Assembly (NCBI RefSeq): GCF_965363235.1 | Contig: NC_134842.1 | Coordinates: 33,976,757 to 34,040,756 of the forward strand | Direction of reading: 5' to 3' | Length of the DNA stretch: 64,000 bases | Source of the DNA: Mytilus galloprovincialis | Taxonomy: Eukaryota | In this document: positions 5,526 through 24,177 of the stretch, in pieces | Numbering within the stretch: the first letter of the stretch is position 1 | Layout: each line of letters starts with the position of its first letter | The notes under the pieces: generated by a model | What the model saw: only the letters and a program-made list of their open reading frames with translations | The model's database searches: none | What the model was told of the DNA's origin: nothing | Program-made: the position numbers and the translations under genes

Positions 5526-5662
5526 ATGTCGACATCAAGACGGGGAGACGAATCAATATACAGAATCCCTCCTTATTTTTACCTCCATGTTCTAGACCAG
5601 AACCTCAATGTAACAAGACTTGAAATTGGTCCACAGACATTTGTCAGACAAGACAATGAAAA
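5526..5662 (+). CDS. MVP: MVP exon 1 (coding part): [45 protein letters not shown] + K split (phase 2 end)
   Basis: ATG at 5526 in a strong Kozak context (ccaccATGt). It is the first ATG after an in-frame TGA at 5484. Matches human MVP residues [36 protein letters not shown]. Donor gtaagt at 5663. Confidence 0.8.
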
Positions 5663-6049
5663 GTAAGTATAACTATACCCTATTTATTCCCGTTAGTAGA
5701 ATGTCTGCCTAGATAAATTTTCTGGTGCATATCCTCCTCACACTATTCCATCAGAATAAATATCTCAAAAAGAAAATAAAAAAGTTTTATGGATTTTTTT
5801 TACACCAAAAGTCAGAGTACACTTGAAGTGAAAATTACCCAATGTTGTATGAAACTATTTATTTTTAGAGTATCATAGAATTAACAACTAAAGATACTAG
5901 TAACACGTTTTGGAATGGCAAGATTTTCTTGCATTTCATTTGTCAGATAGGCCAGACCATGTTCAACCAGATATTAATCTGACAGGATATATTCTTAAAA
6001 GTCAATACCGTAATAAGCGGATACAAATATTGCGCATTGATATTTACAG

Positions 6050-6245
6050 AGTGGTATATGGACCAGAGCGTATGATCACAGTGCCCCCAAGGCATTATTG
6101 TATCGTAGAAAACCCTGTACTAAAGGACAAAGAATGTAAAGTTGTCTTTGACGAAAGTGGACAGGCCAAACTTGTACATGCTGACCAGGAGATTAGATTG
6201 GCACAGGATCCTTTCCCACTGTACCCCGGGGAAATACTGAAACAG
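6050..6245 (+). CDS. MVP: MVP exon 2: (K)[65 protein letters not shown]
   Basis: Acceptor tatttacag|a at 6049/6050 completes the split AAA codon. Matches human [23 protein letters not shown]...[23 protein letters not shown]. Donor gtatga at 6246. Confidence 0.88.
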
Positions 6246-6555
6246 GTATGATATTTGTGGCTATAGGTTCAAGTTTTGATATAACAATTAACAGAACAAA
6301 GGAGTTACAATAATTAAAGTCGAAAATATATGAGTTGTTTTGATTTCAGCTTTTGGGCACGATTTCCCAGTAAACAGTTATTTTGAGCATTTAGCCAGTA
6401 AATCCAGTAATATATAAGTAATCAGGGATAATAATTTAATTTTTCCAATAATACATGATGCAGTTAAGGGAAAAATGTTATATTGATCACTTATTGACTT
6501 TCAATGATATAACATCCACGGATGACTTATTCGTTGTAACCCATAAAAGGCAGTG

Positions 6556-7140
6556 ACCGATTTGCTTTTTCTCCTTTTAAGTGTTGGTTACTGGTCTTAA
6601 CCATCCCTTTTGTCAGTGGTAGCAGATAATTTAATTCCCTCCCTTGTTATTTGAAGGTTGTAGCTCCCTTAAAAGCAGTTGATTTGATTTTTTCCATTTA
6701 ATTGATGTTTATTGGTTTCAACAGTCCCCTGACAGTGGTAGCTACATATTTGATTTCCTCCCTCTTTGCTTGAAGGTTGAAGCTGTTCTATAAGCAACTG
6801 ATTTGATTTGACCCTCCAAGTGTTGTTAATTGGTTGTAACCCTCCCTTAACTGTAGTAGCACCTGATTTAGTTATCTCCTTATTTGTTTGTTGTAGCCCT
6901 GCCCTGACTGTAGTTGCCACTGGTTTCGGCATCTTCTTTTTTGTTTATTGGTTGTTAAAAGTTTTAGGAGCTAATTTAATTTCCTTCCTTGTTGATGATA
7001 AGTATACCACCGTTAAAAATGGTAGCATTTTATTTGATTTTTACCATTGTGAATTAAAGGTGGAAACCCTTGATATTAGTAGCAGCCGATTTGAATTTCT
7101 CATTTGTTCATATGTTCTTAGGTTGTAACCTCCCTGAAAG
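6556..7140. repeat. Intronic minisatellite (about 60-bp half-units / 120-bp dimers, ~9-10 units). The last unit supplies the 3' splice site and first ~8 codons of MVP exon 3
   Basis: Recurrent motif ggttgtaaccctccct.aa..gtggtagca....tttgatttcctcccttgtt..ttgaaggttgtagc. The terminal copy ttaggttgtaacctccctgaaagtggtagcagccaa is the exon-3 acceptor plus [10 protein letters not shown]. Confidence 0.7.
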
Positions 7141-7472
7141 TGGTAGCAGCCAACTCAGCTCTTCGGCTCAGAGCTATTCTAGACTTTGAAGATGACGATG
7201 AGGAAAAGAGAACAGCTGGGGATGAGTGGCTATTTGAAGGACCAGGAACATATATCCCAAGGAAAGAGGTTGTTATTGAGGAGACTGTCAGAGCCACAGT
7301 CATTAGACCTAACCAGGCCATTAGACTGAGGGCTAGGAAGGAGACTATTGATAGACAAGGTGTTGCTAGGGTAACTGGTGAGGAATGGCTGGTGAAGAAG
7401 ACCGGAGCTTATCTCCCAGGAGCCTATGAAGAAGTTGTAGATGTTGTCAACGCCTATGTTCTAACAGATAAG
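7122..7472 (+). CDS. MVP: MVP exon 3: [117 protein letters not shown]
   Basis: In-frame TAG at 7119-7121 is the AG of acceptor ttcttag|gtt. Matches human [26 protein letters not shown]...[19 protein letters not shown]...RVTGEEWLV...VILTEK. Donor gtaaat at 7473. Confidence 0.88.
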
Positions 7473-7812
7473 GTAAATATAGTTCCAATCAGTGGAATGA
7501 CAATAAAAAGAAGATAAATTGATCTTTGATCTATTGGTGCATATTTCATATTTCTTTTGTTGATGTGATCGTTTGAATTTTCGTATTTAAAAAATATTTT
7601 GCATGTGTATTTAAATTTGCGGAGGAATAAATAGATGATAAACTAGTACACCATAAAAACGTTATATAAAATAGAGAAAGAAACTGTAGCATAATAGGAA
7701 CAAACAATTAAATATTTCTTAGAGTTATCTGGTCATATTAATCACCTTTCAAATACTAGTAATGTACAACGTAATTAGACAAGACATTATCATCTAATTT
7801 GTTATCGTGCAG

Positions 7813-7938
7813 AAAGCCCTCCATATGATATCATTGAGAACATTTAAAGACGACTTTGGTGTAACAAGAAAGAATGGAGAGGAATGGTTGATCAAAATGA
7901 CAGACACAGAAACACACATACCTAATGTGTATGAAGAG
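7813..7938 (+). CDS. MVP: MVP exon 4: KALHMISLRTFKDDFGVTRKNGEEWLIKMTDTETHIPNVYEE
   Basis: Acceptor tcgtgcag|aaa. Matches human [42 protein letters not shown]. Donor gtatgt at 7939. Confidence 0.88.
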
Positions 7939-8250
7939 GTATGTACTGATGTAACAGGGAATGAAATATGGAATAAACACTTATTGTTTTCCCTTTATGA
8001 ATAAAAGAAAAACGTTTCTGGGGAACACATCTTCACTTTGATTTCTTAAAATCCTTTCCTTACTTCCTTTCTATTTCACTTTTATTCAACAAAATATGAT
8101 TCTGACTCAGTGCAGTTCATACTCATGCACTCTTCCGAGTTTCATTTTACAAGTTATGAAAATATTCAATTTGAGTACAGCTCAGATTCGCTTAATTTCT
8201 GGTCAGAAGAAGTACCGATTGAGTCAAATAGAGTTCTGATCAGATTATAT

Positions 8251-8320
8251 GGAAATTCAATTGAATTGAGCAGAAGAGCTGAGTTGGCTGCTACCACTTG
8301 AATGCTCAATTCAATTCATT
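8251..8320. repeat. Small hairpin whose loop carries a perfect 27-nt inverted copy of the exon-3 5' end (8274-8300 = reverse complement of 7138-7164). It is flanked by a 14-bp stem (attcaattgaattgagca / tgctcaattcaatt).
   Basis: Seen directly. It explains the shared peptide [10 protein letters not shown] in track ORFs 7118-7321(-) and 8110-8301(+). Confidence 0.8.
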
Positions 8321-8513
8321 TTACTGGACAAGAAAAAAAAATCAAGCAAGTCTTTTCTACATTTGGTTTTCCGTTGAATACCTCAAATAAGTGATGCCCA
8401 AAACAGGTCAATCCACAGTCTTCATACTAAGCAATAGACCAATACTTAAGTAATTGCCATTGTTTTTATACGACCGCAAAATTTGAAAAATTTTTCGTCG
8501 TATATTGCTATCA

Positions 8514-8542
8514 CGTCGTCGTCGTCGTCGTCGTCGTCGTCC
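8514..8542. repeat. (CGT)9 microsatellite at the 5' end of element copy A. Shorter (CGT)n at 11083-11098 and 22875-22905 in copies B and C.
   Basis: Seen directly. It generates the poly-Arg run in the spurious ORF 8408-8623(-). Confidence 0.9.
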
Positions 8543-8555
8543 GAATACTTTTAGT

Positions 8556-9165
8556 TTTCGCACTCTAACTTGAGTAAAAGTGAATAGAAATCTATGAAAT
8601 TTTAACACAAGGTTTATGACCACAAAAGGAAGGTTGGGATTGATTTTGGGAGTTTTGGTCCCAACATTTTAGGAATTAGGGGCCAAAAAGGGCCCAAATA
8701 AGCATTTTCTTGGTTTTCGCACTATAACTTTAGTTTAAGTTAATAGAAATCTATGAAATTTTGACACAAGGTTTATGACCACAAAAGAAAGGTTGGTATT
8801 GATTTTGGGAGTTTTGGTTCCAACAGTTTAGGAATTAGGGGCCAAAAAAGGGCCCAAATAAGCATTATTCTTGGTTTTCGCACAATAACTTTAGTTTAAG
8901 TAAATAGAAATCAATGAAATTTAAACACAATGTTTATGACCACAAAAGGAAGGTTGGTATTGATTTTGGGAGTTTAGGTCCCAACAGTTTAGGAATTAGG
9001 GGCCAAAAAGGGACCCAAATAAGCATTTTTCTTGGTTTTCGCACCATAACTTTAGTATAAGTAAATAGAAATCTATGAAATTTAAACACAAGGTTTATGA
9101 CCATAAAAGGAAGGTTGGTATTGATTTTGGGAGTTTTGGTCCCAACAGTTTAGGAATAAAGGGCC
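8556..9165. repeat. Satellite, ~160-163-bp unit x ~3.7 (ttttcgcac.ataactt.agt.taagt.aatagaaatctatgaaatttaaacacaaggtttatgaccacaaaaggaaggttgg.attgattttgggagttttggtcccaacagtttaggaattaggggccaaaaagggcccaaataagcatt...)
   Basis: Unit starts at 8556, 8719, 8879 and 9042. The same satellite is at 11125-11400 (copy B) and 22935-23215 (copy C), and an inverted fragment at 22665-22715. Confidence 0.85.
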
Positions 9166-9712
9166 CAAAGGGTCCAAAATTAAACTTTGTTTGATTTCAT
9201 CAAAAATTGAATAATTGGGGTTCTTTGATATGCCGAATCTAACTGTGTATGTAGATTCTTAATTTTTGGTCCCGTTTTCAAATTGGTCTACATTAAGGTC
9301 CAAAGGGTCCAAAATTAAACTTAGTTTGATTTTAACAAAAATTGAATCCTTGGGGTTCTTTGATATGCTGAATCTAAAAATGTACTTAATTTTTTTATTA
9401 TTGGCCCAGTTTTCAAGTTGGTCCAAATCGGGGTCCAAAATTAAACTTTGTTTGATTTCATCAAAAATTGAATAATTGGGGTTCTTTGATATGCCAAATC
9501 TAACTGTGTATGTAGATTCTTAATTTTTGGTCCCGTTTTAAAATTGGTCTACATTAAAGTCCAAAGGGTCCAAAATTAAACTAAGTATGATTTTAACAAA
9601 AATTGAATTCTTGGGCCTCTTTGATATGCTGAATCTAAACATGTACTAAGATTTTTGATTATGGGCCCAGTTTTCAAGTTGGTCCAAATCAGGATCCAAA
9701 ATTATTATATTA
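9164..9712. repeat. Satellite, ~133-bp unit x ~4 (ggtccaaaattaaactttgtttgatttcatcaaaaattgaataattggggttctttgatatgc.gaatctaa...ttggtc.acatt.aggtccaaagg)
   Basis: Periodicity 9164/9298/9432/9566. Also present at 11405-11690 and 11880-12120 in copy B, and 23200-23960 in copy C. Confidence 0.85.
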
Positions 9713-9713
9713 A

Positions 9714-9930
9714 GTATTGTGCAATAGCAAGAAATTTTCAATTGCACAGTATTCAGCAATAGCAAGAAATCTTCAATTGCACAGTATTGTGCAATAGCAA
9801 GAAATCTTCAATTGCACAGTATTGTGCAATAGCAAATATTTTCAATTGCACAGTATTGCACAATAGCAAGAAATATCTAATTGCACAATATTGTGCAATA
9901 GCAAGAAATTCCAATTGGATTTCAATTGGA
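9714..9930. repeat. 35-bp tandem repeat x ~6 in which every unit is itself a hairpin (tattgTGTGCAATagcaagaaat.ttcaATTGCACAg)
   Basis: Seen directly. 8-bp complementary arms tgtgcaat/attgcaca within each unit. The same array is at 11693-11880 in copy B. Confidence 0.85.
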
Positions 9931-10597
9931 GTTATCTTTCTTTGTCCAGAATAGTAGTTGAATCAACTTAAATCATTGTTTTATACAATATACAATGTAT
10001 ATTCACTTTTACTACCAACTGATAGATTAAAACAATCTTTACCATTCAGTGATAGCAAGCACTTTTTTTACATTTTAATATTTTATGATGTATTTAAATG
10101 AGTAGTTATTGTTGCAAACTTCATTAGAAATTTGAATTGAGATCAGTTTTGAAATAAGGGAAAGGGGGATGTGAAAAAAAAATTGGGGGGTCAATTTTTT
10201 TCATTTCAGATTTCATAAATAAAAAGAAAATTTCTTCAAACATTTTTTTGAGAGGATTAATATTCAACAGCATAGTGAATTGCTCAAAGGCAAAAAAAAA
10301 TTTTTTAAGTTCATTAGACCACATTCATTCTGTGTCAGAAACCTATGCTGTGTCAACTATTTAATCACAGTCCAAATTTAGATCTGAATCCAGCTTGAAT
10401 GTTGTGTCCATACTTGCCCCAACCGTTCAGGGTTCAACCTCTGCGGTCGTATAAAGCTGCGCCCTGCGGAGCATCTGGTTGAAACTTAACGCCTACTGAA
10501 AAGAAATGTTAATGGTGCGATGGTTGAAAAACAGTTTCCAAGTTTTCTAATTGACCACAAAGACATTTTTTGTAATATACTTACGGTTTGATTTCAG

Positions 10598-10708
10598 GTT
10601 GTTGGAGTCGTCAACATCACCACACTTACCACAAGACAATATTGTATCATTCTTGACCCTTCCGATGAACATGGCAGACTACAACTGGGTAGAAAGAAAT
10701 TAGTTAAG
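10598..10708 (+). CDS. MVP: MVP exon 5: [37 protein letters not shown]
   Basis: Acceptor gatttcag|gtt; donor aag|gtaaat. Matches human [37 protein letters not shown]. Not in the ORF track because it lacks an ATG and is short. Confidence 0.85.
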
Positions 10709-11042
10709 GTAAATACAATGTTAGATGAATTAGCATAGATAATATTCTGTATAACTAAGTTTCATCAATGTATGCTATTGCATAGTATATAACACGTTAA
10801 TATTAATAAATTGGCATGCAACATGTTTATGTCAATAAAGTATTTTGAACCGTGACGAAAACGCCCTGTTATTATGTCATATGTACGGTGTATTTCTTAT
10901 TGCACCATCTCTAAAAGAATACTTAGTAATTGGCCGTTTGAACTTTCAAAATCTAAAGAATCATGGGTAATTTCATTGTTCGTACCCCAAAATGAAAATA
11001 ACGTCACGTCATTGGTTGATTTCCATTGTTTATAATATTTTT

Positions 11043-12708
11043 ATACGACCGCAAACGGTAGTATATTGGTATATGACGTTGGCGTCGTCGTCGTCGTCCG
11101 AAGACACATCGGTTTTCGCACTATAACTTTATTTTAAGTGAATAGAAATCTACGAAATTTAAAAACAAGGTTTATGACCACAAAAGGAAGGTTTGGATTG
11201 ATTTTGGGAGTTTTGGTCCTAACAGTTTAGGAATTAGGGGCCAAAAAAGGGCCCAAAATAAGCATTTTTCTTGGTTTTCGCACAATAACTTTAGTATAAG
11301 TAAATAGAAATCAATGAAATTTAAACACAAGGTTTATGACCACAAAAGGAAGGTTTGGATGGATTTTGGGAGTTTTGGTCCCAACAGTTTAGGAATTAGG
11401 GGGTCCAAAGGGTCCAAAATTAAACTTTGTTTGATTTTATCAAAAATTGAATAATTGGTTTTCTTTGATATGCCGAATCTAACCGTGTATGTAGATTCTT
11501 AATTTTTGGTCCTGTTTTAAAATTGGTCTACATTAAGGTCCAAAGGGTCCAAAATTAAACTTGATTTTAACAAAAAATTAATTCTTGGGGTTCTTTGATA
11601 TGCTGAATCTAACATGTACTTAGATTTTTGATTATGGGCCCAGTTTTCAAGTTGGTACAAATCGGGGTCCAAAATTATTATATTAAGTATTGTTCAATAG
11701 CAAGAAATTTTCAATTGCACAGTATTGCGCAATAGCAAGAATTCTTCAATTTGCACAGTATTGTGCAATAGCAAGAAATATCTAATTGCACAATATTGCA
11801 CAATAGCAAGAAATTTTCAATTGCACAGTTTTGAGCAATAGCAAGAAATATTCAATTGCACAGTATTGTCCCGTTTTCAAATTGGTCTACATTAAGGTTC
11901 AAAGGGTCAAAAATTAAACTTTGAAAAAAATTGAATATATGGGGTTCTTCAATATGCTGAATCTAACCATGTATTTAGATTTTTAATATTTGCGCCCGGT
12001 TATCAAATTGGTCCACTTTGAGGTTTAAAGGGTCTAAAATTGAACATTATTTACTTTTATCAAAATTGAATTCTTGGGGTTCTATGATATGCTGAATCTA
12101 ACCATGTATTTAGATATTGGACCATAATAGGTAAATGTCCAATTTAGAATTTTTAAGTTTTTAAGTTCAAGTTCTTAGACCACATTCATTCTGTGTCAGA
12201 AACCTATGCTGTGTCAACTATTTAATCACAATCCAAATTCAGAGCTGTATCAAGCTTAAATGTTGTGTCCATACTTGCCCCAACTGTTCATGGTTAGACC
12301 TCTGCGGTCGTATGAAGCTGCGCCCTGCGGAGCATCTGGTTGATATTTTGGCCCGGTTATCAAATTGGTCCACATTGAGGTCTAAAGGGTCCAAAATTGA
12401 ACTTTATTTGATTTCATCAAAAATTGAATTCTTGGGGTTCTTTGATATGCTGAATCTAACCATGTATTTGTATTTTGGATATTGGACCATAATAGGTAAA
12501 TGTCCAATTTAGAATTTTTAAGTTTTTAAGTTCAAGTTCTTAGACCACATTCATTCTGTGTCAGAAACCTATGTTGTGTCAACTATTAAATCACAATCCA
12601 AATTCTGAGCTGTATCAAGCTTGAATGTTGAGTCCATACTTGCCCCAACTGTTCAGTGTTCGACCTCTGCGGTCGTATAAAGCTGCGCCCTGCGGAGCAT
12701 CTGGTTAA
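11043..12708 (+). mobile_element. Helitron/Helentron-like element copy B (in MVP intron 5) with a tandemly duplicated 3' terminal module (two complete 3' ends ending at ~12341 and ~12708)
   Basis: Same 5' terminus TATACGACCGCAAACGG plus (CGT)n. The 3' end ...ctctgcggtcgtat.aagctgcgccctgcggagcatctggtt occurs twice ~367 bp apart, each preceded by the same ~330-bp 3' module (gaccacattcattctgtgtcagaaacctatg.tgtgtcaactatt.aatcaca.tccaaatt...). Confidence 0.6.
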
Positions 12709-12978
12709 CCAATCACGAAGTTTTGGCGTACACTTTTGAAAATATTACCCAGGATGCATTAGATTCTGAAACGGCGAATTGTCAATTAACAAGTCCGCGT
12801 TCAGATCAGCATCTTTACATTGTGTATTTTACAAAAGACATTCTTTTTCCTCAATGTCAAGGCAACTCAACAGCTGAAAGCTGATCTTTAACTTAACTTT
12901 AACGTTATCATCGAGGGCATCTTTCTTAATTCCCCGAGTATATAATTATTCTTATTTTATATAATTGTATTTTTATAG

Positions 12979-13104
12979 GGTGAGTGTTCCTTCTTTTTGT
13001 TACCTGGAGAACGATTTGAGAGAGGTATCCAGAATGTCTATGTACTAGGAGAAGATGAAGGTGTTATTCTACGAGCCACAGAATCATTCATTGATAAAGC
13101 TGCT
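12979..13104 (+). CDS. MVP: MVP exon 6: [42 protein letters not shown]
   Basis: Acceptor ttttatag|ggt; donor gct|gtgagt. Matches human [39 protein letters not shown]. Confidence 0.85.
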
Positions 13105-13705
13105 GTGAGTTGAACTGTGAACACTATTAAGTATTGATATCACGTGTTTCTTCTTTTTGTGATATGATTGGTTGTCCATACTATAAAACAAAACTTTAAC
13201 CAAATGATTAACGACCATTAAAAGTGAACACAGAAAATTGCATATTCTTGTCACCACGCTTCGTAATGTAAAGCCTGAATGAATGCTAAAGTGTTTATTC
13301 TCAAACGTTACAAGTTACTGTGGATTCATTATTTTCGTGGATACCAATTTTCGTGGTTTGAGGAAAACTTGCATATTCGTGGATATTTAATTTCGTGGTT
13401 TTGACAAAGTATGCATATATTCCTTTAGAAAATTTGCAATTCGTTGAATATTTAAATTCGTGGTTTCCCGGTACCCACAAAATCGACGAAAATTGGTATC
13501 CAACGAATAATAATGAATCCACGTTAGTAGTTATTCTGGGAACAGTCAACACTTTCATTAGTGATGAATGTTAAAATAAGTTTTGAACAGTTTGTCAATT
13601 ATTTCTGATATTGTGTGTCTGATATAAAATCCAAATGTTAATTGATATGTTTCGTTTATTTTGTTTCCCATTATGTATTTCTATTGATATTTTTTCTGTT
13701 TCCAG

Positions 13706-13855
13706 AAGGTAGAACGAAAACCAGGGGATAAATGGATGATTCGGGGACCAGCCGAATACGTTCCTCCTGTGGAGGTAGAGGTGACAATGAAGAGAACTGC
13801 ACTACCACTAGATGAAAATGAGGGTATCTATGTCAGATGTATTAAAACTGGAAAG
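13706..13855 (+). CDS. MVP: MVP exon 7: [50 protein letters not shown]
   Basis: Acceptor tttccag|aag; donor aag|gtatgt. Matches human [50 protein letters not shown]. Confidence 0.88.
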
Positions 13856-14113
13856 GTATGTCATACAGTTTCTATGTTCCACAAATAATCATATACATGT
13901 GTATTTTATGTGTATTTTTCTTAAAGATGTCAGTCAGTTGATAGTCTCATATTATGTAATGAAGTTCTATCAAACATCTATGTGTATAAAGCAAAATCAT
14001 TTAAGACATCAAATGTTATTTTCGGTGGTCTATAAGAATATAACTGAATAGAACTGTGAATTGAGCATATATATTTGTTTCCTTGTGATATCAAATATAA
14101 ATACACATTTTAG

Positions 14114-14355
14114 GTCAGAGCTGTAACTGGAGAGACCTACATGTTAAATCAGGATGAGGAACTATGGGCTAAAGAACTTTCTCCTGCAGTCGAGACTCTC
14201 CTTGCTGAGGCTAAAAACCCACAGGCCTTTGGTGAGAGAGGACCAAAACCAGGAAGTGAGGCTTCTAAACCACGTGACAAAACACGTGTGATCACTTTCC
14301 GAGTTCCACACAATGCTGCTGTACAGATTTACGATTATAAAGAAAAGAAAGCAAG
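14114..14355 (+). CDS. MVP: MVP exon 8: [80 protein letters not shown] + R split (phase 2 end)
   Basis: Acceptor attttag|gtc; donor ag|gtatat. Matches human [30 protein letters not shown]...[28 protein letters not shown]. Confidence 0.88.
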
Positions 14356-14595
14356 GTATATTTATAAAATTTAATAAAGTTAATAATTTAGTAAGATTCA
14401 ATGTAAGCATTAATTTTTATGTTTAGAATTGATAATGTCATCATAATACTGTTCTTGTACCTAACTTCAATTCGTGAAAGAGATTTGATTAGTAGTAGTC
14501 TGTTTATTTGAGCAATTCAATGTCTTAACAAGATCCTGATATGTAAATCATGTGATAAAATTTTAAGTTATCTTTATTTTTGCTTTTCTTAACAG

Positions 14596-14938
14596 GGTTG
14601 TTTTTGGTCCCGAGTTGGTTTTATTAGGTCCTGATGAACAATTCACGAAGCTTAGCCTTTCTGGTGGCAAACCAAAGAAAAACAATGTCATTAAATCTTT
14701 ATGTCTGTTTCTGGGGCCGGACTTCAGTACTGACATCATTACTGTAGAAACATCTGACCATGCAAGACTGTCATTACAGCTGTCGTACAACTGGCACTTT
14801 GAAATTGAAAGTAAAGAGGATAAAGTAGAGGCTGCTAAGATTTTCAGTGTACCAGATTTCATTGGAGATGCCTGCAAGGCTATAGCTTCCAGAGTCAGAG
14901 GTGCCGTAGCACAAGTACAGTTTGATGACTTCCATAAG
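14596..14938 (+). CDS. MVP: MVP exon 9: (R)[114 protein letters not shown]
   Basis: Acceptor ttaacag|g completes the AGG codon. Matches human [27 protein letters not shown]...[35 protein letters not shown]...[32 protein letters not shown]. Donor gtaagc at 14939. Confidence 0.9.
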
Positions 14939-15251
14939 GTAAGCATTATCTTTATACAGCAAATGGTCTGGTTTTAGGAATATTAAATTCGAGTGAGGGC
15001 ATACGAAACCTGAAACATTTCCCTAAATGCATGATGAGTGTAAAACTTTATCAAAATTGGTGTGTCCGAAGCGCTTTTTATGCCCCGCCTTTTTGAGTTA
15101 TGTCCCTTTATAACATTACATGCTAGCGGGGACATCATCTGTGTCCCTATGGACATATTCCCCATTTATCTTGATTGACCTCCATCATAAAAAACGTAAG
15201 AGCCTTTAAAATCCAATGTCATCTAAAAAGGAATACATTCTTTTGTTTTAG

Positions 15252-15463
15252 AATTCTGCAAGAATCATCAGATCTTCAGTATTTGGTTTTGACGAGAAAG
15301 GAAAAGTTCGAGGAGCTTTTAGATTCCCACAGAACAACTTGGTATTCACCAGTATTGATATTCAATCTGTTGAACCTGTAGATCAGAGAACAAGAGATGC
15401 CTTACAGAAATCTGTACAACTAGCCATTGAAATCACAACAAACTCACAGGAAGCTACTGCAAG
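15252..15463 (+). CDS. MVP: MVP exon 10: [70 protein letters not shown] + R split (phase 2 end)
   Basis: Acceptor ttgttttag|aat; donor ag|gtgagt. Matches human NSARIIRTAVFGFET...[34 protein letters not shown]. Confidence 0.88.
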
Positions 15464-16092
15464 GTGAGTAACTCAATAGAAATATGTAAAGCTAGCCATT
15501 GAATGCACATTTTACTCACGGGAAGCCGCTGAAAGGTAGGTTAGTTTGTCAACTTTTGTAATTAGTCACGACAAACTGAAGCTGAACCATATTCGATCGA
15601 TACAATCCTAGACATTTTCTAGGTGTAGTACACTACTGTTGCCTTGGAATTGATTCAGAAGTACATCATACATGTGTTAATGAATGTTGCACGCCTGCTA
15701 GATCTAATTGATCTTCAGAAGTAATATTGTTTAACCGTTGTGGACTGTACTAGAAGATATACAAAATTTATACTCGTACCAACATGGTTAGTGACACATA
15801 GACATATTGGGTATAAATGGCTCTGAACCAACAATATGTGGTCCAGATCATAAATGTCAGAAGTCGGAATAAACTGTTTACAGAGCGTGCAAATTTGGAA
15901 AAACAATATCCATAGAAACAATATTTTCTGAATAATTAACTTATCTGAAAACGTTTAATGTTGAAGATCTGATTTTGATGAATATTAAGTCTATACCAAA
16001 AAAAAATGAATATTATACCAATTCGTGTTTATACTTATTGTATAGTTGAAGCATGAACTATTATGTGTCTGAATGCCTTCAAATGGTTATGT

Positions 16093-16678
16093 CAAAGGAG
16101 TAGGTCCGGTAAGGACCGATTTTGGCCTCAAATTTCAGTTTCATCTGACGAAAGATTTTGACCACTTTTTAAACACTTAAGTGTTTATTTCATATGATGC
16201 AATTAATTTATGTGAAAGATTTTAACTTATTAAGTCATTAAAAACGATCCGATTCTGGCTCAAATATGAGAAATCTACCAAATATGCGAAAAATTGTCAC
16301 TTTTCAGATGGTTTTTGTCAAAAACGAAAGTGGCCGCATCCGTGTTCATCCTCAATCTTTATATATGTTATGTATTATCATTAAATACAACTTCCATTTC
16401 AATATTTTGGATGAACACGAATGCGGCCACTTTCATTTTACACGGAAACCGTCTAAAATTTAACTAAAATGCTGGAATTGTGAAGATTTCAGTAATTTAG
16501 CATGAATTAATGGTGCTAGTTCTCAATATATGTGCATTGTATTGTCATTAAGAGCCCATATTTATGTAGCAGAACCTTTCTACTATCCAATAAATGACTA
16601 AAAGTTTACATTTTAACAATTTTGTAAAACTGCTATATTTTGGGGCCAAAAAGGGGTCTTACTGGACCTACTCCTTTG
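16093..16678 (+). mobile_element. 586-bp MITE, copy 1 (inside MVP intron 10). ~35-bp imperfect TIRs caaaggagtaggtccggtaaggacc...ggtcttactggacctactcctttg. It also has an internal 26-bp-arm palindrome (gaaagtggccgcatccgtgttcatcc ... ggatgaacacgaatgcggccactttc).
   Basis: Terminal inverted repeats and the internal palindrome seen directly. No credible coding capacity. Second copy at 19701-20286 in opposite orientation. Confidence 0.75.
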
Positions 16679-16890
16679 ATGAGAAACGTAATATGTATAT
16701 TACATAACCAAATGAACTTATACCGAATAGTTTTATGTGGAAACTCTTCTTAGCCAGAAAGAACATTTTTTATCATGACCTCTGTCTGTTAAGACTGATG
16801 GATACAATTTTAATTCATACTTTTGCATTATGTTATTTGATGAAGATTTAATTCATAACTATTACTCTAAGTTTTCTTTTTAAATCTTAG

Positions 16891-17134
16891 ACATGAAGCA
16901 GAAAGATTAGAACAGGAAGCTAAAGGAAGATTAGAGAGACAGAAGATTTCAGATGAAGCAGAAGCCGAAAAATCCAGGAGACAGTTGTTGGAATTACAGG
17001 CAAACAGTGCTGCAGTAGAAAGTACTGGTCAGGCTAAAGCAGAGGCACAGTCCCGAGCTGAAGCTTCTAGGATTGAGGGTGAGGCAGCTGTAGACCAGGC
17101 CAAACTGAAATCACAGGCAATGAAAATTGAATCA
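16891..17134 (+). CDS. MVP: MVP exon 11: (R)[81 protein letters not shown]
   Basis: Acceptor aaatcttag|a completes the AGA codon; donor tca|gtaagt. Matches human [81 protein letters not shown]. Confidence 0.88.
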
Positions 17135-17519
17135 GTAAGTAGCATGGTTCATGTAAATTTTTACTGGAATTTGATGGCATAAGTGGTTAATAGGTGATTT
17201 GCTAAATCATTCAGATTTGACAACTTCATTGTTTAATTGTGTTTGATGTAGTTGTGAAGAATAGCCCACACACAAACTTAAATTTAAATCATTTCAGTTT
17301 AAAGTCGAGTTTATAATGGTGCTGGTTCCAAGTTTGTATATGTACCATTTTCTGTTTTGGCACAGTCCTTTTATTATCTGAAATTCTCTTTTGGGTGATC
17401 ATAAGAACCTTCGATTCATGTTACAACAAAACTACATGCTATCTATTCATTGAACTCAACAAAGCTGACAAGTTTTATTATTAATGATAACGTTAGTACA
17501 ATATAAAATCTTATTTTAG

Positions 17520-17861
17520 GAATCTGAATTGGAAAGACTTACACAAGCAAGAGAGGCAGAACTAGCATATGTCCGAGAACAAGATGAAATAGAACTAAGC
17601 AAATCTAGGGAAATGTCAAGCATTGAAACCACCAAATTCAAGAACATGGTGGACGCAATTGGAGCAAATACATTGGCAACCATGGCGTCGGCTGGACCAG
17701 ACCAACAGGTCCGTATGTTGCAGTCCCTGGGCCTGAAATCCACCTTAATCACGGACGGTAGCACACCTATTAATCTGTTTAATACAGCTAATGGATTGAT
17801 TGGAGGTATGATGCCAGCAAAGAGGCGAAATCGGAATGACGACGATGATTGTTATGAATAA
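17520..17861 (+). CDS. MVP: MVP exon 12 (terminal, includes TAA stop): [113 protein letters not shown]
   Basis: Acceptor cttattttag|gaa. Matches human EAELQRVQ...[58 protein letters not shown]. Stop TAA at 17859-17861. The C-terminal tail after NTANGLIGG is short and lineage-specific, so a further small intron at ggtatg (17807) cannot be excluded. Confidence 0.8.
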
Positions 17862-22285: not shown

Positions 22286-22665
22286 ACTGGGCCGGTATAA
22301 CCTTCGGGGACTAACAGGTGGTAATAATTAACGGTACAAATTTTACTGCACCAGATGCGTATTTCGAAGACACAGTGGTTTTCGCACGACGACGACGATG
22401 ACGACGCCAACGTCATACCAATATACGACCGCACACAATTTGCATAAAAACAAGTGCAAACATCTTTAAGATAAATTATAATTGGTGTCAACTGGTTCAA
22501 AAGTTAAACAGTTAAATATATATTATTCTGTTCCAAAGTTTGTAGGACGACCTCGAGCATCGGTGGAGACATTAATTGTCGAAATACGCATCTGGTGCAG
22601 TAAAATTTGTACCGTTAATTATTACCACCTGTTAGTCCCCGAAGGTTATACCGGCCCAGTAGACC
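22286..22665. repeat. Inverted-repeat structure immediately upstream of element copy C. Arms of ~95 bp (22286-22378 vs 22565-22660) enclose an inverted fragment of the element's 5' end (22370-22434 = reverse complement of gcggtcgtatat..ggtatgac..ggcgtcgtc).
   Basis: Seen directly. Track ORFs 22261-22500(-) and 22482-22772(+) share the peptide EIRIWCSKICTVNYYHLLVPEGYTGPV because they read the two arms. Confidence 0.75.
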
Positions 22666-22852
22666 AACACTCCCAAAATCAATCCCAACCTTCCTTTTGT
22701 GGTCATAAACCTTGTGTCTCTAAAAGAATACTTGGTAATTGGACGTTTCAAAATCTAAAGAATCATGGGTAATTTCATTGTTCGTACCCCAAAATGAAAA
22801 TAACGTCACGTCATTGGTTGATTTCCATTGTTTATGACATTTTATACGACCG

Positions 22853-24177
22853 CAAACGGTCGTATAATATTGGTATGACTTTGGCGTCGTCATCGTCGTC
22901 GTCGTCGTCCGAAGACACATCGGTTTTCGCACTATAACTTGAGTTTAAGTGAATAGAAATCTGTGAAATTTAAACACAAGGTTTATGACCACAAAAGGAA
23001 GGTTGGGATTGATTTTAGGAGTTTTGGTCCCAACAGTTTAGGAATAAGGGGCCAAAAAGGGCCCAAATAAGCATTTTTCTTGTTTTTCGCACAATTACTT
23101 TAGTATAAGTTAATAGAAATCTATGAAATTTTAACACAAGGTTTATGACCACAAAATGAAGGTTTGGTTTTATTTTGGGAGTTTTGGTCCCATCGAATTA
23201 GAGGCCAAAAGGGTCCAAAATTAAACTTTGTTTGGTTTCATCAAAAAATGTATTATTGGGGTTCTTCGATATGCCAAATCTTACCGTGTATTCAGATTCT
23301 TAATTTCTGGTCCTGTTTTCAAATTGGTCTACATTAAGGTCCAAAGGGTCCAAAATTAAACTCAGCTTGATTTTAACAAAAATTGAATTCTTGGGGTTCT
23401 TTGATATGCTGAATCTAAACATGTACTAAGATTTTTGATTATGGGCCCAGTTTTCAAGTTGGTTTAAATCGGGGTCCAAAATTAAACTTTGTTTGATTTC
23501 AACAAAAATTGAATCATTGGGGTTCTTTGATATGCTGAATCTAAACATGTATTAAGATTTTTGCTTATAGACCCAGTTTTCAAGTTGGTCCAAATCGGGG
23601 TCCAAAATTAAACTTTGTTTGATTTCAACATTAATTGAATCCTTGGGGTTCTTTGATATGCTGAATCTAAAAATGTATTTATATTTTTTATTATAGTCCC
23701 AGTTTTCAAGTTGGTCCAAATCGGGGTCCTTAATTAAACTTTGTTTGATTTCAACCAAAAATGAATATATGGGGTTCCTTGATATATGCTGAATCTAACC
23801 ATGTATTTATATTTTTGATATTTTGGCCCGGTTATCAAATTGGTCCACATTGAGGTCTAAAGGGTCCAAAATAGAACTTTATTTGATTTCATCAAAAATT
23901 GAATTCATTGGGTTCTTTGATATGGTGAAACCATATATCTAGATTTTGGATATTGGACCATAATAGGTAAATGTCCAATTTAAAATGTTTAAGTTTTTAA
24001 GTTTAAGTTCTTAGACCACATTCATTCTGTGTCAGAAACCTATGTTGTGTCAACTATTTAATCACAATCCAAATTCAGAGCTGTATCAAGCTTGAATGTT
24101 GTGTCCATACTTGCCCCAACTGTTCAGGGTTCCACCTCTGCAGTCGTATAAAGCTGTGTCCTGCAGAGCATCTGGTT
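22853..24177 (+). mobile_element. Helitron/Helentron-like element copy C (downstream of MVP), same termini and internal satellites as A and B. Its 3' end shows CpG-to-TpG/CpA changes relative to A and B.
   Basis: 5' end ttttatacgaccgcaaacggtcg plus (CGT)n. 3' end ctctgcagtcgtataaagctgtgtcctgcagagcatctggtt, versus ctctgcggtcgtataaagctgcgccctgcggagcatctggtt in A and B. Confidence 0.6.

Follow-up and report, generated by a model that had tools for sequence, protein, structure and literature searches.

The window, by which we mean the whole 64,000-nucleotide stretch of DNA analysed here, is AT-rich (31.5% G+C) and carries on its + strand a multi-exon gene for the major vault protein (MVP). The exons were located by tblastn with an approximate human MVP query; the aligned exons extend from 5547 to 17804. 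Borders of the first five coding exons were set by GT-AG dinucleotides and an open frame:

5526-5662, + strand: MVP coding exon 1 (GT-AG borders, open frame).
6050-6245, + strand: MVP coding exon 2 (GT-AG borders, open frame).
7122-7472, + strand: MVP exon 3, 351 nt and in frame, its start set by homology.
7813-7938, + strand: MVP exon 4, 126 nt (GT-AG borders, open frame).
7939-10597, + strand: MVP intron 4, host of the hairpin described below, delimited by the exon borders.
10598-10708, + strand: MVP coding exon 5 (GT-AG borders, open frame).

The acceptor AG of exon 3 occupies 7120-7121, and the beginning of the exon at 7122 is fixed by homology of its VVTSLKVV... segment to other MVPs. Exon 3 alone and exons 3 and 4 together are multiples of three; their sum of 477 nt, given in a preliminary description of this DNA, is borne out (351 + 126 nt). 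The closest named protein is the MVP of Patella vulgata, at 76% identity, and the best protein matches to an N-terminal MVP query reach at most 83%. Intron positions in MVP vary among orthologues: one distant relative (contig L014) lacks the window's intron 2, so that its exons 2 and 3 are contiguous (L014 426-769), and an extra intron follows the G153 codon in both L014 and Patella (L003 12759-13860), splitting what is exon 3 in the window. On MVP intron structures in bivalves, nothing was found in the literature.

Intron 4 contains an inverted copy of a short coding segment of exon 3. The 27-mer AAGTGGTAGCAGCCAACTCAGCTCTTC is found at 7138-7164 on the + strand and at 8273-8299 on the - strand, the two being exact reverse complements. 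There is no further copy in the 64-kb window with up to three mismatches, and at the same tolerance no 27-mer match at all appeared in shuffled sequences (0/100): an exact 27-nt copy cannot be the work of chance. The inverted match grows to 33 nt at 97% identity (7138-7170 against 8267-8299), its lone mismatch being G7165 opposite A8272. The elements of this arrangement are:

7138-7170, + strand: source and target segment in MVP exon 3, exon nt +17 to +49, codons K117-R128.
8253-8272, + strand: left palindrome arm, with its perfect part at 8259-8272 (AATTGAATTGAGCA) and an imperfect extension to 8253.
8273-8299, + strand: antisense block, a putative templated insertion, exact reverse complement of 7138-7164.
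8300-8302, + strand: GAA, the presumed original triloop, from the sequence and the fold of the reconstructed empty site.
8303-8322, + strand: right palindrome arm, with its perfect part at 8303-8316 (TGCTCAATTCAATT) and an imperfect extension to 8322.

The antisense copy announced in the preliminary description thus exists and is exact, one nucleotide away from the position given there (8273-8299, not 8274-8300), and it does lie within the loop of a hairpin in intron 4. Its target had been misread: it is not made of two intron-adjacent nucleotides and the opening 25 nt of exon 3; the exact 27 nt cover exon positions +17 to +43 and are wholly coding. With the acceptor AG at 7120-7121, the pairing partner of the block is exon nt +17 to +49, not the intron/exon boundary.

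Homology to the exon ends sharply on both sides: 53% and 59% of shuffles score as well as the alignments of the flanks. No homology continues past 33 nt, as it would if a longer inverted duplication had decayed here. The block is unique in the window and falls outside the neighbouring transposon-like element: the hairpin stands some 175 nt upstream of this satellite-bearing unit, which starts near 8497. An origin from a MITE or another repeat family is unsupported, as neither block nor arms have further copies in the window.

The 14-bp complementary arms reported earlier were found as described, with a perfect core at 8259-8272 and 8303-8316; taken over 8253-8272 and 8303-8322, the arms are 20 nt long and 90% complementary. 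Six nucleotides, TGAGCA at 8267-8272, are shared: they end the left arm and are at the same time part of the 33-nt match, which puts the local hairpin and the long-range duplex in competition for them. When 8273-8299 is removed, what is left is AAATTCAATTGAATTGAGCA-GAA-TGCTCAATTCAATTCATTTT, a perfect 14-bp stem with a GAA triloop; the exon patch thus occupies the very tip of a small palindrome. GAA also opens the insert (8273-8275), and the patch is therefore flanked by a 3-nt direct repeat. As DNA, the reconstructed empty site folds at -14.1 kcal/mol (z -5.5), and 0 of 200 shuffles fold as well; the present local hairpin, taken alone as RNA, has -23.3 kcal/mol and z -2.3.

The start of exon 3 takes part in a second set of repeats, upstream of it:

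~6500-7121, + strand: degenerate minisatellite in the 3' half of intron 2, unit 57-59/118 nt.

Its last unit is made of the true 3' splice site and the first ~30 nt of exon 3, which makes the array a series of decayed copies of pseudo-acceptor and exon start. The 5' junction of the exon has thus been duplicated a second time, in tandem and in a lineage-specific manner: the array is absent from intron 2 of the relative L009. Tandem duplication of the same junction in this lineage only points to a locally duplication-prone template and favours a mutational reading of the block. The units hold exact cores of 9-11 nt that are complementary to the antisense block, and the block pairs with them at down to -32 kcal/mol, compared with about -62 to -63 for the exon site. 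A derivation of the block from this minisatellite was considered and rejected, because the units lack AACTCAGCTCTTC and have only the 9-11-nt cores in common with it. The fallback offered in the preliminary description, an inert inverted minisatellite fragment, is accordingly half right: an inert fragment is close to what the anatomy suggests, and its source is the exon, not the minisatellite.

Several other repeats occupy the window. A giant tandem array with a period of ~1748 nt spans 24684-64000 in at least 22 units that are ~99.9% identical; it was missed by TRF, whose maximum period was 500, and has no Rfam matches and no ORF of 110 aa or more. It accounts for the 68% of the window that lies in intra-window repeats. 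The repeat scan also delimited three copies of a composite element, in which tandem arrays of ~161, 130 and 35 nt come after a (CGT)n microsatellite:

8497-9917: composite element copy in intron 4.
11077-11869: composite element copy in intron 5.
22378-23929: composite element copy downstream of MVP.

Such satellite-bearing copies would point to a mollusc, possibly a bivalve, and we take the element to resemble the Helitron-like or MITE elements that carry satellites in bivalves. Besides the feature in intron 4, the window has just one isolated, short and near-perfect inverted pair (13320-13354 and 13486-13522; 37 nt, 95%, 132 nt apart). This pair is in a later MVP intron, overlapping with a 42-nt tandem repeat, and may represent the two ends of a small foldback or MITE-like element.

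For comparison with relatives, contigs were collected from metagenomes and Logan assemblies by a protein search with the exon-3 ORF. Six of them (L005, L006, L007, L009, L010, L011) represent one species, L008 and L013 stand apart, L014 and L015 are more distant, and L003 is Patella. Intron 4 is complete in L005, L014 and L003, and partial in L009, L010 and L013. Three compact or intronless MVP loci of unrelated organisms (L001, L002, L004) were uninformative and set aside. One JGI contig (L012, 1-1164, 3300042710) was examined as a candidate inverted duplication of exon 3 and discarded: it joins ~100%-identical segments of the L005 species' MVP locus in alternating orientation, the layout of a chimera made in assembly or amplification, with no genomic inversion behind it.

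At the DNA level, exon 3 of the relatives is ~85% identical to that of the window, and the introns are unalignable. Exact reverse-complement matches of at least 10 nt to the contig's own exon-3 start were listed in full for Patella and for the contigs with a conserved exon-3 anchor (L005-L011, L013). Patella has none, and the anchored contigs gave a single 10-nt chance match, in L008. In a looser repeat scan of L005, L008, L009 and L010, an inverted partner of the exon-3 start was not among the five longest. In an RNAduplex search that tolerates G-U pairs, the window scores z -7.1, and L005, L014 and Patella each score ~0. The exon arm is conserved, as coding sequence, and the intron arm is present only in the window.

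The preliminary description had held that want of conservation, joined to want of back-splicing or alternative exon-3 usage, would speak for an inert fragment; the first half of this is what the relatives return, with no counterpart in any that has a readable intron 4. As far as these contigs tell, the comparison shows a block restricted to the window's lineage and not ancient. The relatives are distant and their introns unalignable, and absence from them is compatible with an element that is young and nonetheless selected.

The exon side of the match has its own pattern of conservation. A run of 22 nt, TGAAAGTGGTAGCAGCCAACTC (7135-7156), is identical in the window and in three lineages that differ at ~15% of exon-3 positions; it exceeds every other such run in exon 3 and takes in four-fold degenerate sites. 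The segment may be a splicing enhancer. As proof of constraint at the RNA level the run was not retained: six identical codons are not significant by a rough estimate (p ~0.2).

In RNA folds of 7100-8330, the interval singled out in the preliminary description, the predicted exon-intron duplex dominates. It appears in the MFE structure as well as in the centroid, and the partition function gives it a pair probability of ~1.0, leaving ~0 to the local hairpin; its 33 bp are worth about -62 to -63 kcal/mol by prediction. Thermodynamically, the modelled long-range pairing is convincing, and the MVP pre-mRNA can, on these folds, form a 33-bp duplex between exon 3 and intron 4. The pairing proposed earlier with the exon-3 acceptor region is hence very strong in silico, and its target lies inside the exon, 16 nt 3' of the acceptor.

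With a duplex probability near 1, an influence on RNA processing is plausible even for an unselected block. If there is any, the duplex would be expected to act as generic nuclear dsRNA and not as a canonical bracket for back-splicing. By masking the conserved 5' end of exon 3, it could slow or reduce definition of the exon; it could also be a substrate of ADAR.

We consider it probable that the feature is a lineage-specific templated insertion, produced by a template-switch mutation at the tip of a palindrome. Before the event, intron 4 of MVP would have held a small palindrome with a 14-bp perfect stem and a GAA triloop. At the tip of this hairpin, in the course of replication or break repair, a growing strand ending in ...TGAGCAGAA would have paired with the near-identical TGAGCCGAA, which lies 1.1 kb away on the other strand of exon 3; it would then have copied ~24-27 nt from the exon and returned to its original template. 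The outcome would be an inverted exon patch right at the palindrome apex. An empty allele, present now or formerly, is predicted to read AATTGAATTGAGCAGAATGCTCAATTCAATT. Equally compatible with the sequence is an alternative course, in which a 33-nt insert came first and the right arm was made by snap-back synthesis. The donor distance of 1.1 kb exceeds that of classical short-range template switches, which span tens to hundreds of bases.

At the left junction, intronic TGAGCAGAA and the exon reverse complement TGAGCCGAA agree at 8/9 positions (TGAGCaGAA in the intron, TGAGCcGAA in the reverse complement of the exon); at the right junction there is no microhomology. Priming from an imperfect 8/9 microhomology predicts that the lone mismatch of the 33-nt match falls exactly at the junction, as it does, and we infer that it marks an imperfect primer site and not later decay. 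The direction of copying is shown by two observations: the exon codes for residues conserved to human and Patella, and the copy carries the exon states specific to the window (CTCAGCTCTTC, where three other lineages have CTCTGC(C/T)CT(A/C)C). The exon is the donor.

Template switching is documented to yield reverse-complement repeats and perfect hairpins (PMC8794818; PMC7954356; PMC10710096), and short templated inverted insertions of ~5-34 bp arise at breaks via microhomology, some of them from distant sites (PMC11724301). Two metagenome scans, the first with the 27-mer and the second with the two arms separated by a 1-31-nt gap, the form expected of an empty site, gave 0 matches each. No DNA of the same or a sister species came up.

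The patch is most likely young and not under selection, and our verdict from the letters of this locus and its relatives is that the block would be an ordinary mutational product with a potential cis effect. As a counterpoint, a perfect 27-nt antisense segment that a hairpin loop presents to the best-conserved part of exon 3 also resembles a designed regulator.

A rival proposal, in line with the preliminary description, is that a selected long-range RNA-RNA pairing regulates MVP splicing: the loop-displayed block would capture the 5' end of exon 3 and either weaken definition of this exon, with in-frame skipping of its 117 codons, or draw the exon-4 donor towards the exon-3 acceptor, giving a 477-nt circle. 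We hold this to be unlikely. In its favour are the predicted duplex itself (33 bp, -62 kcal/mol, probability ~1), the frame-preserving lengths of exon 3 and of exons 3 and 4, and the overlap of the target with the longest fully conserved run of the exon (7135-7156), where an enhancer may lie. The weaker complementarity of the block to intron-2 units upstream of the acceptor (9-11-nt cores, to -32 kcal/mol) adds to these. As for length, 30-40-nt repeats suffice for circularisation in human reporters (PMC4201285), and the 33 bp found here, at -62 kcal/mol, are within this range of stable complementarity.

Against it stands geometry. The published circularisation model requires repeats in both flanking introns (PMC4201285), and by that definition the upstream arm (7138-7170) is misplaced, being exonic. 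Because this arm starts 16 nt 3' of the acceptor and within exon 3, it forms a stem that fails to bracket both splice sites; the acceptor stays outside the looped segment, which weakens the earlier suggestion that the stem brings the exon-4 donor and the exon-3 acceptor together. Furthermore, no relative shows conservation or covariation: neither conservation of both arms nor compensatory substitution, by which long-range splicing structures are recognised, is seen, and the conserved codon run is statistically weak by our own estimate (p ~0.2).

A second proposal would make the block an editing complement: the exon-intron duplex recruits ADAR to exon-3 adenosines before intron 4 is removed. 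Eight adenosines are present in the exonic strand of the duplex, at 7138, 7139, 7145, 7148, 7152, 7153, 7157 and 7170; candidate sites would recode K117, N122 and R128, and V119, A120 and S123 would be silent. A helix of 33 bp with one G.A mismatch is within the range bound by ADARs. Near-perfect duplexes, on the other hand, lead to promiscuous and not to site-selective editing. Pairing between an exon and a complement in a downstream intron is the standard architecture of recoding sites (PMC3479170), and exon 3 and intron 4 are so arranged, except that the complement sits one intron beyond the adjacent intron 3. Known functional editing sites are conserved along with their complement, whereas this block is lineage-specific and its complementarity is not conserved with the exon across species. 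We regard this reading as quite unlikely.

Individually, then, regulatory roles are unlikely, and two further readings are very improbable. An intronic small-RNA gene (a miRNA-like, siRNA or snoRNA-like precursor targeting MVP mRNA) could draw on the 27-nt antisense content, which is piRNA-sized, and on a local hairpin of -23.3 kcal/mol (z -2.3); it is rejected, as Rfam has no credible match and the geometry is not that of a precursor. The antisense part is in a 30-nt loop and not in a stem, the stem has only 14-20 AU-rich bp, unlike a pre-miRNA, and C/D boxes are in no sensible arrangement, all this despite template switching being a documented route to new miRNA hairpins (PMC10710096). Rfam at gathering thresholds gave 0 matches over the whole window (miRNA, snoRNA, vault RNA and other families), and on 7950-8520, with E allowed up to 10, noise only (all E above 4). 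The other reading, an assembly or sequencing artefact in which exon sequence came into the intron through a chimeric read or a polishing error, can point to inverted chimeras in public assemblies such as contig L012, but a short patch precisely at a palindrome apex with a microhomology junction is a biological signature atypical of assemblers, and the sequence around the block is unique and continuous.

Returning to the template switch, as it stands the importance of the case is small: one more short inverted templated insertion. It is an unusually legible one, with an exonic donor, an acceptor site at a palindrome apex and a microhomology junction. It also offers a natural case in which a single mutational event would create a 33-bp exon-intron helix, thought to be raw material for editing complements and long-range splicing structures. 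If a block-dependent change in MVP transcripts were shown, the case would supply a dated origin for a structure of this kind.

The most far-reaching version combines birth and function: a very young cis-antisense 'selector' that arose in a single template switch. Its 27-nt exon-3 complement, exposed in the hairpin loop, would seize the conserved 5' end of exon 3 in the nascent MVP transcript and measurably alter MVP RNA processing in this lineage. Its routes would be exon-3 skipping, exon 3-4 back-splicing aided by the intron-2 repeats, or A-to-I recoding at K117, N122 or R128. We judge this joint claim, with all its routes taken together, improbable; if true, it would be a long-range regulatory RNA structure or editing complement caught in the act of originating.

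Known systems help to place the locus. The GluA2 Q/R and R/G complements (PMC3479170) likewise join a coding exon to an element of a downstream intron by pairing before splicing; here the intron is non-adjacent, the duplex is almost perfect and cross-species conservation is missing. With the Dscam1 docking and selector sequences and with ATE1 R1-R5 (PMC12962786, PMC7797038), our case shares intramolecular pairing at kilobase range near a 3' splice site, whereas those structures have deep conservation, compensatory changes and linked alternative exons, and this one has no conservation and no evident alternative exon.

Closer in form are intronic repeats of the ZKSCAN1/HIPK3 type (Liang & Wilusz 2014, PMC4201285), which show the same short (~30-40 nt), near-perfect inverted complementarity, spanning a downstream donor and coming near an upstream acceptor. 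The upstream arm in MVP is within the exon, in contrast, and the stem takes up part of the sequence that would make the circle.

Template-switch mutations differ from the present feature in three respects: the donor here is farther off (1.1 kb), the second junction is without microhomology, and the ancestral empty site is reconstructed, not observed. In other respects the likeness is close: a nearby reverse-complement copy with sharp switch points, microhomology at one junction (8/9), a hairpin-forming palindrome, and a new perfect RNA/DNA helix made in one step. The size of the block, 24-33 nt, likewise falls inside the range of 5-34 bp reported for insertions at break sites in yeast (PMC11724301).
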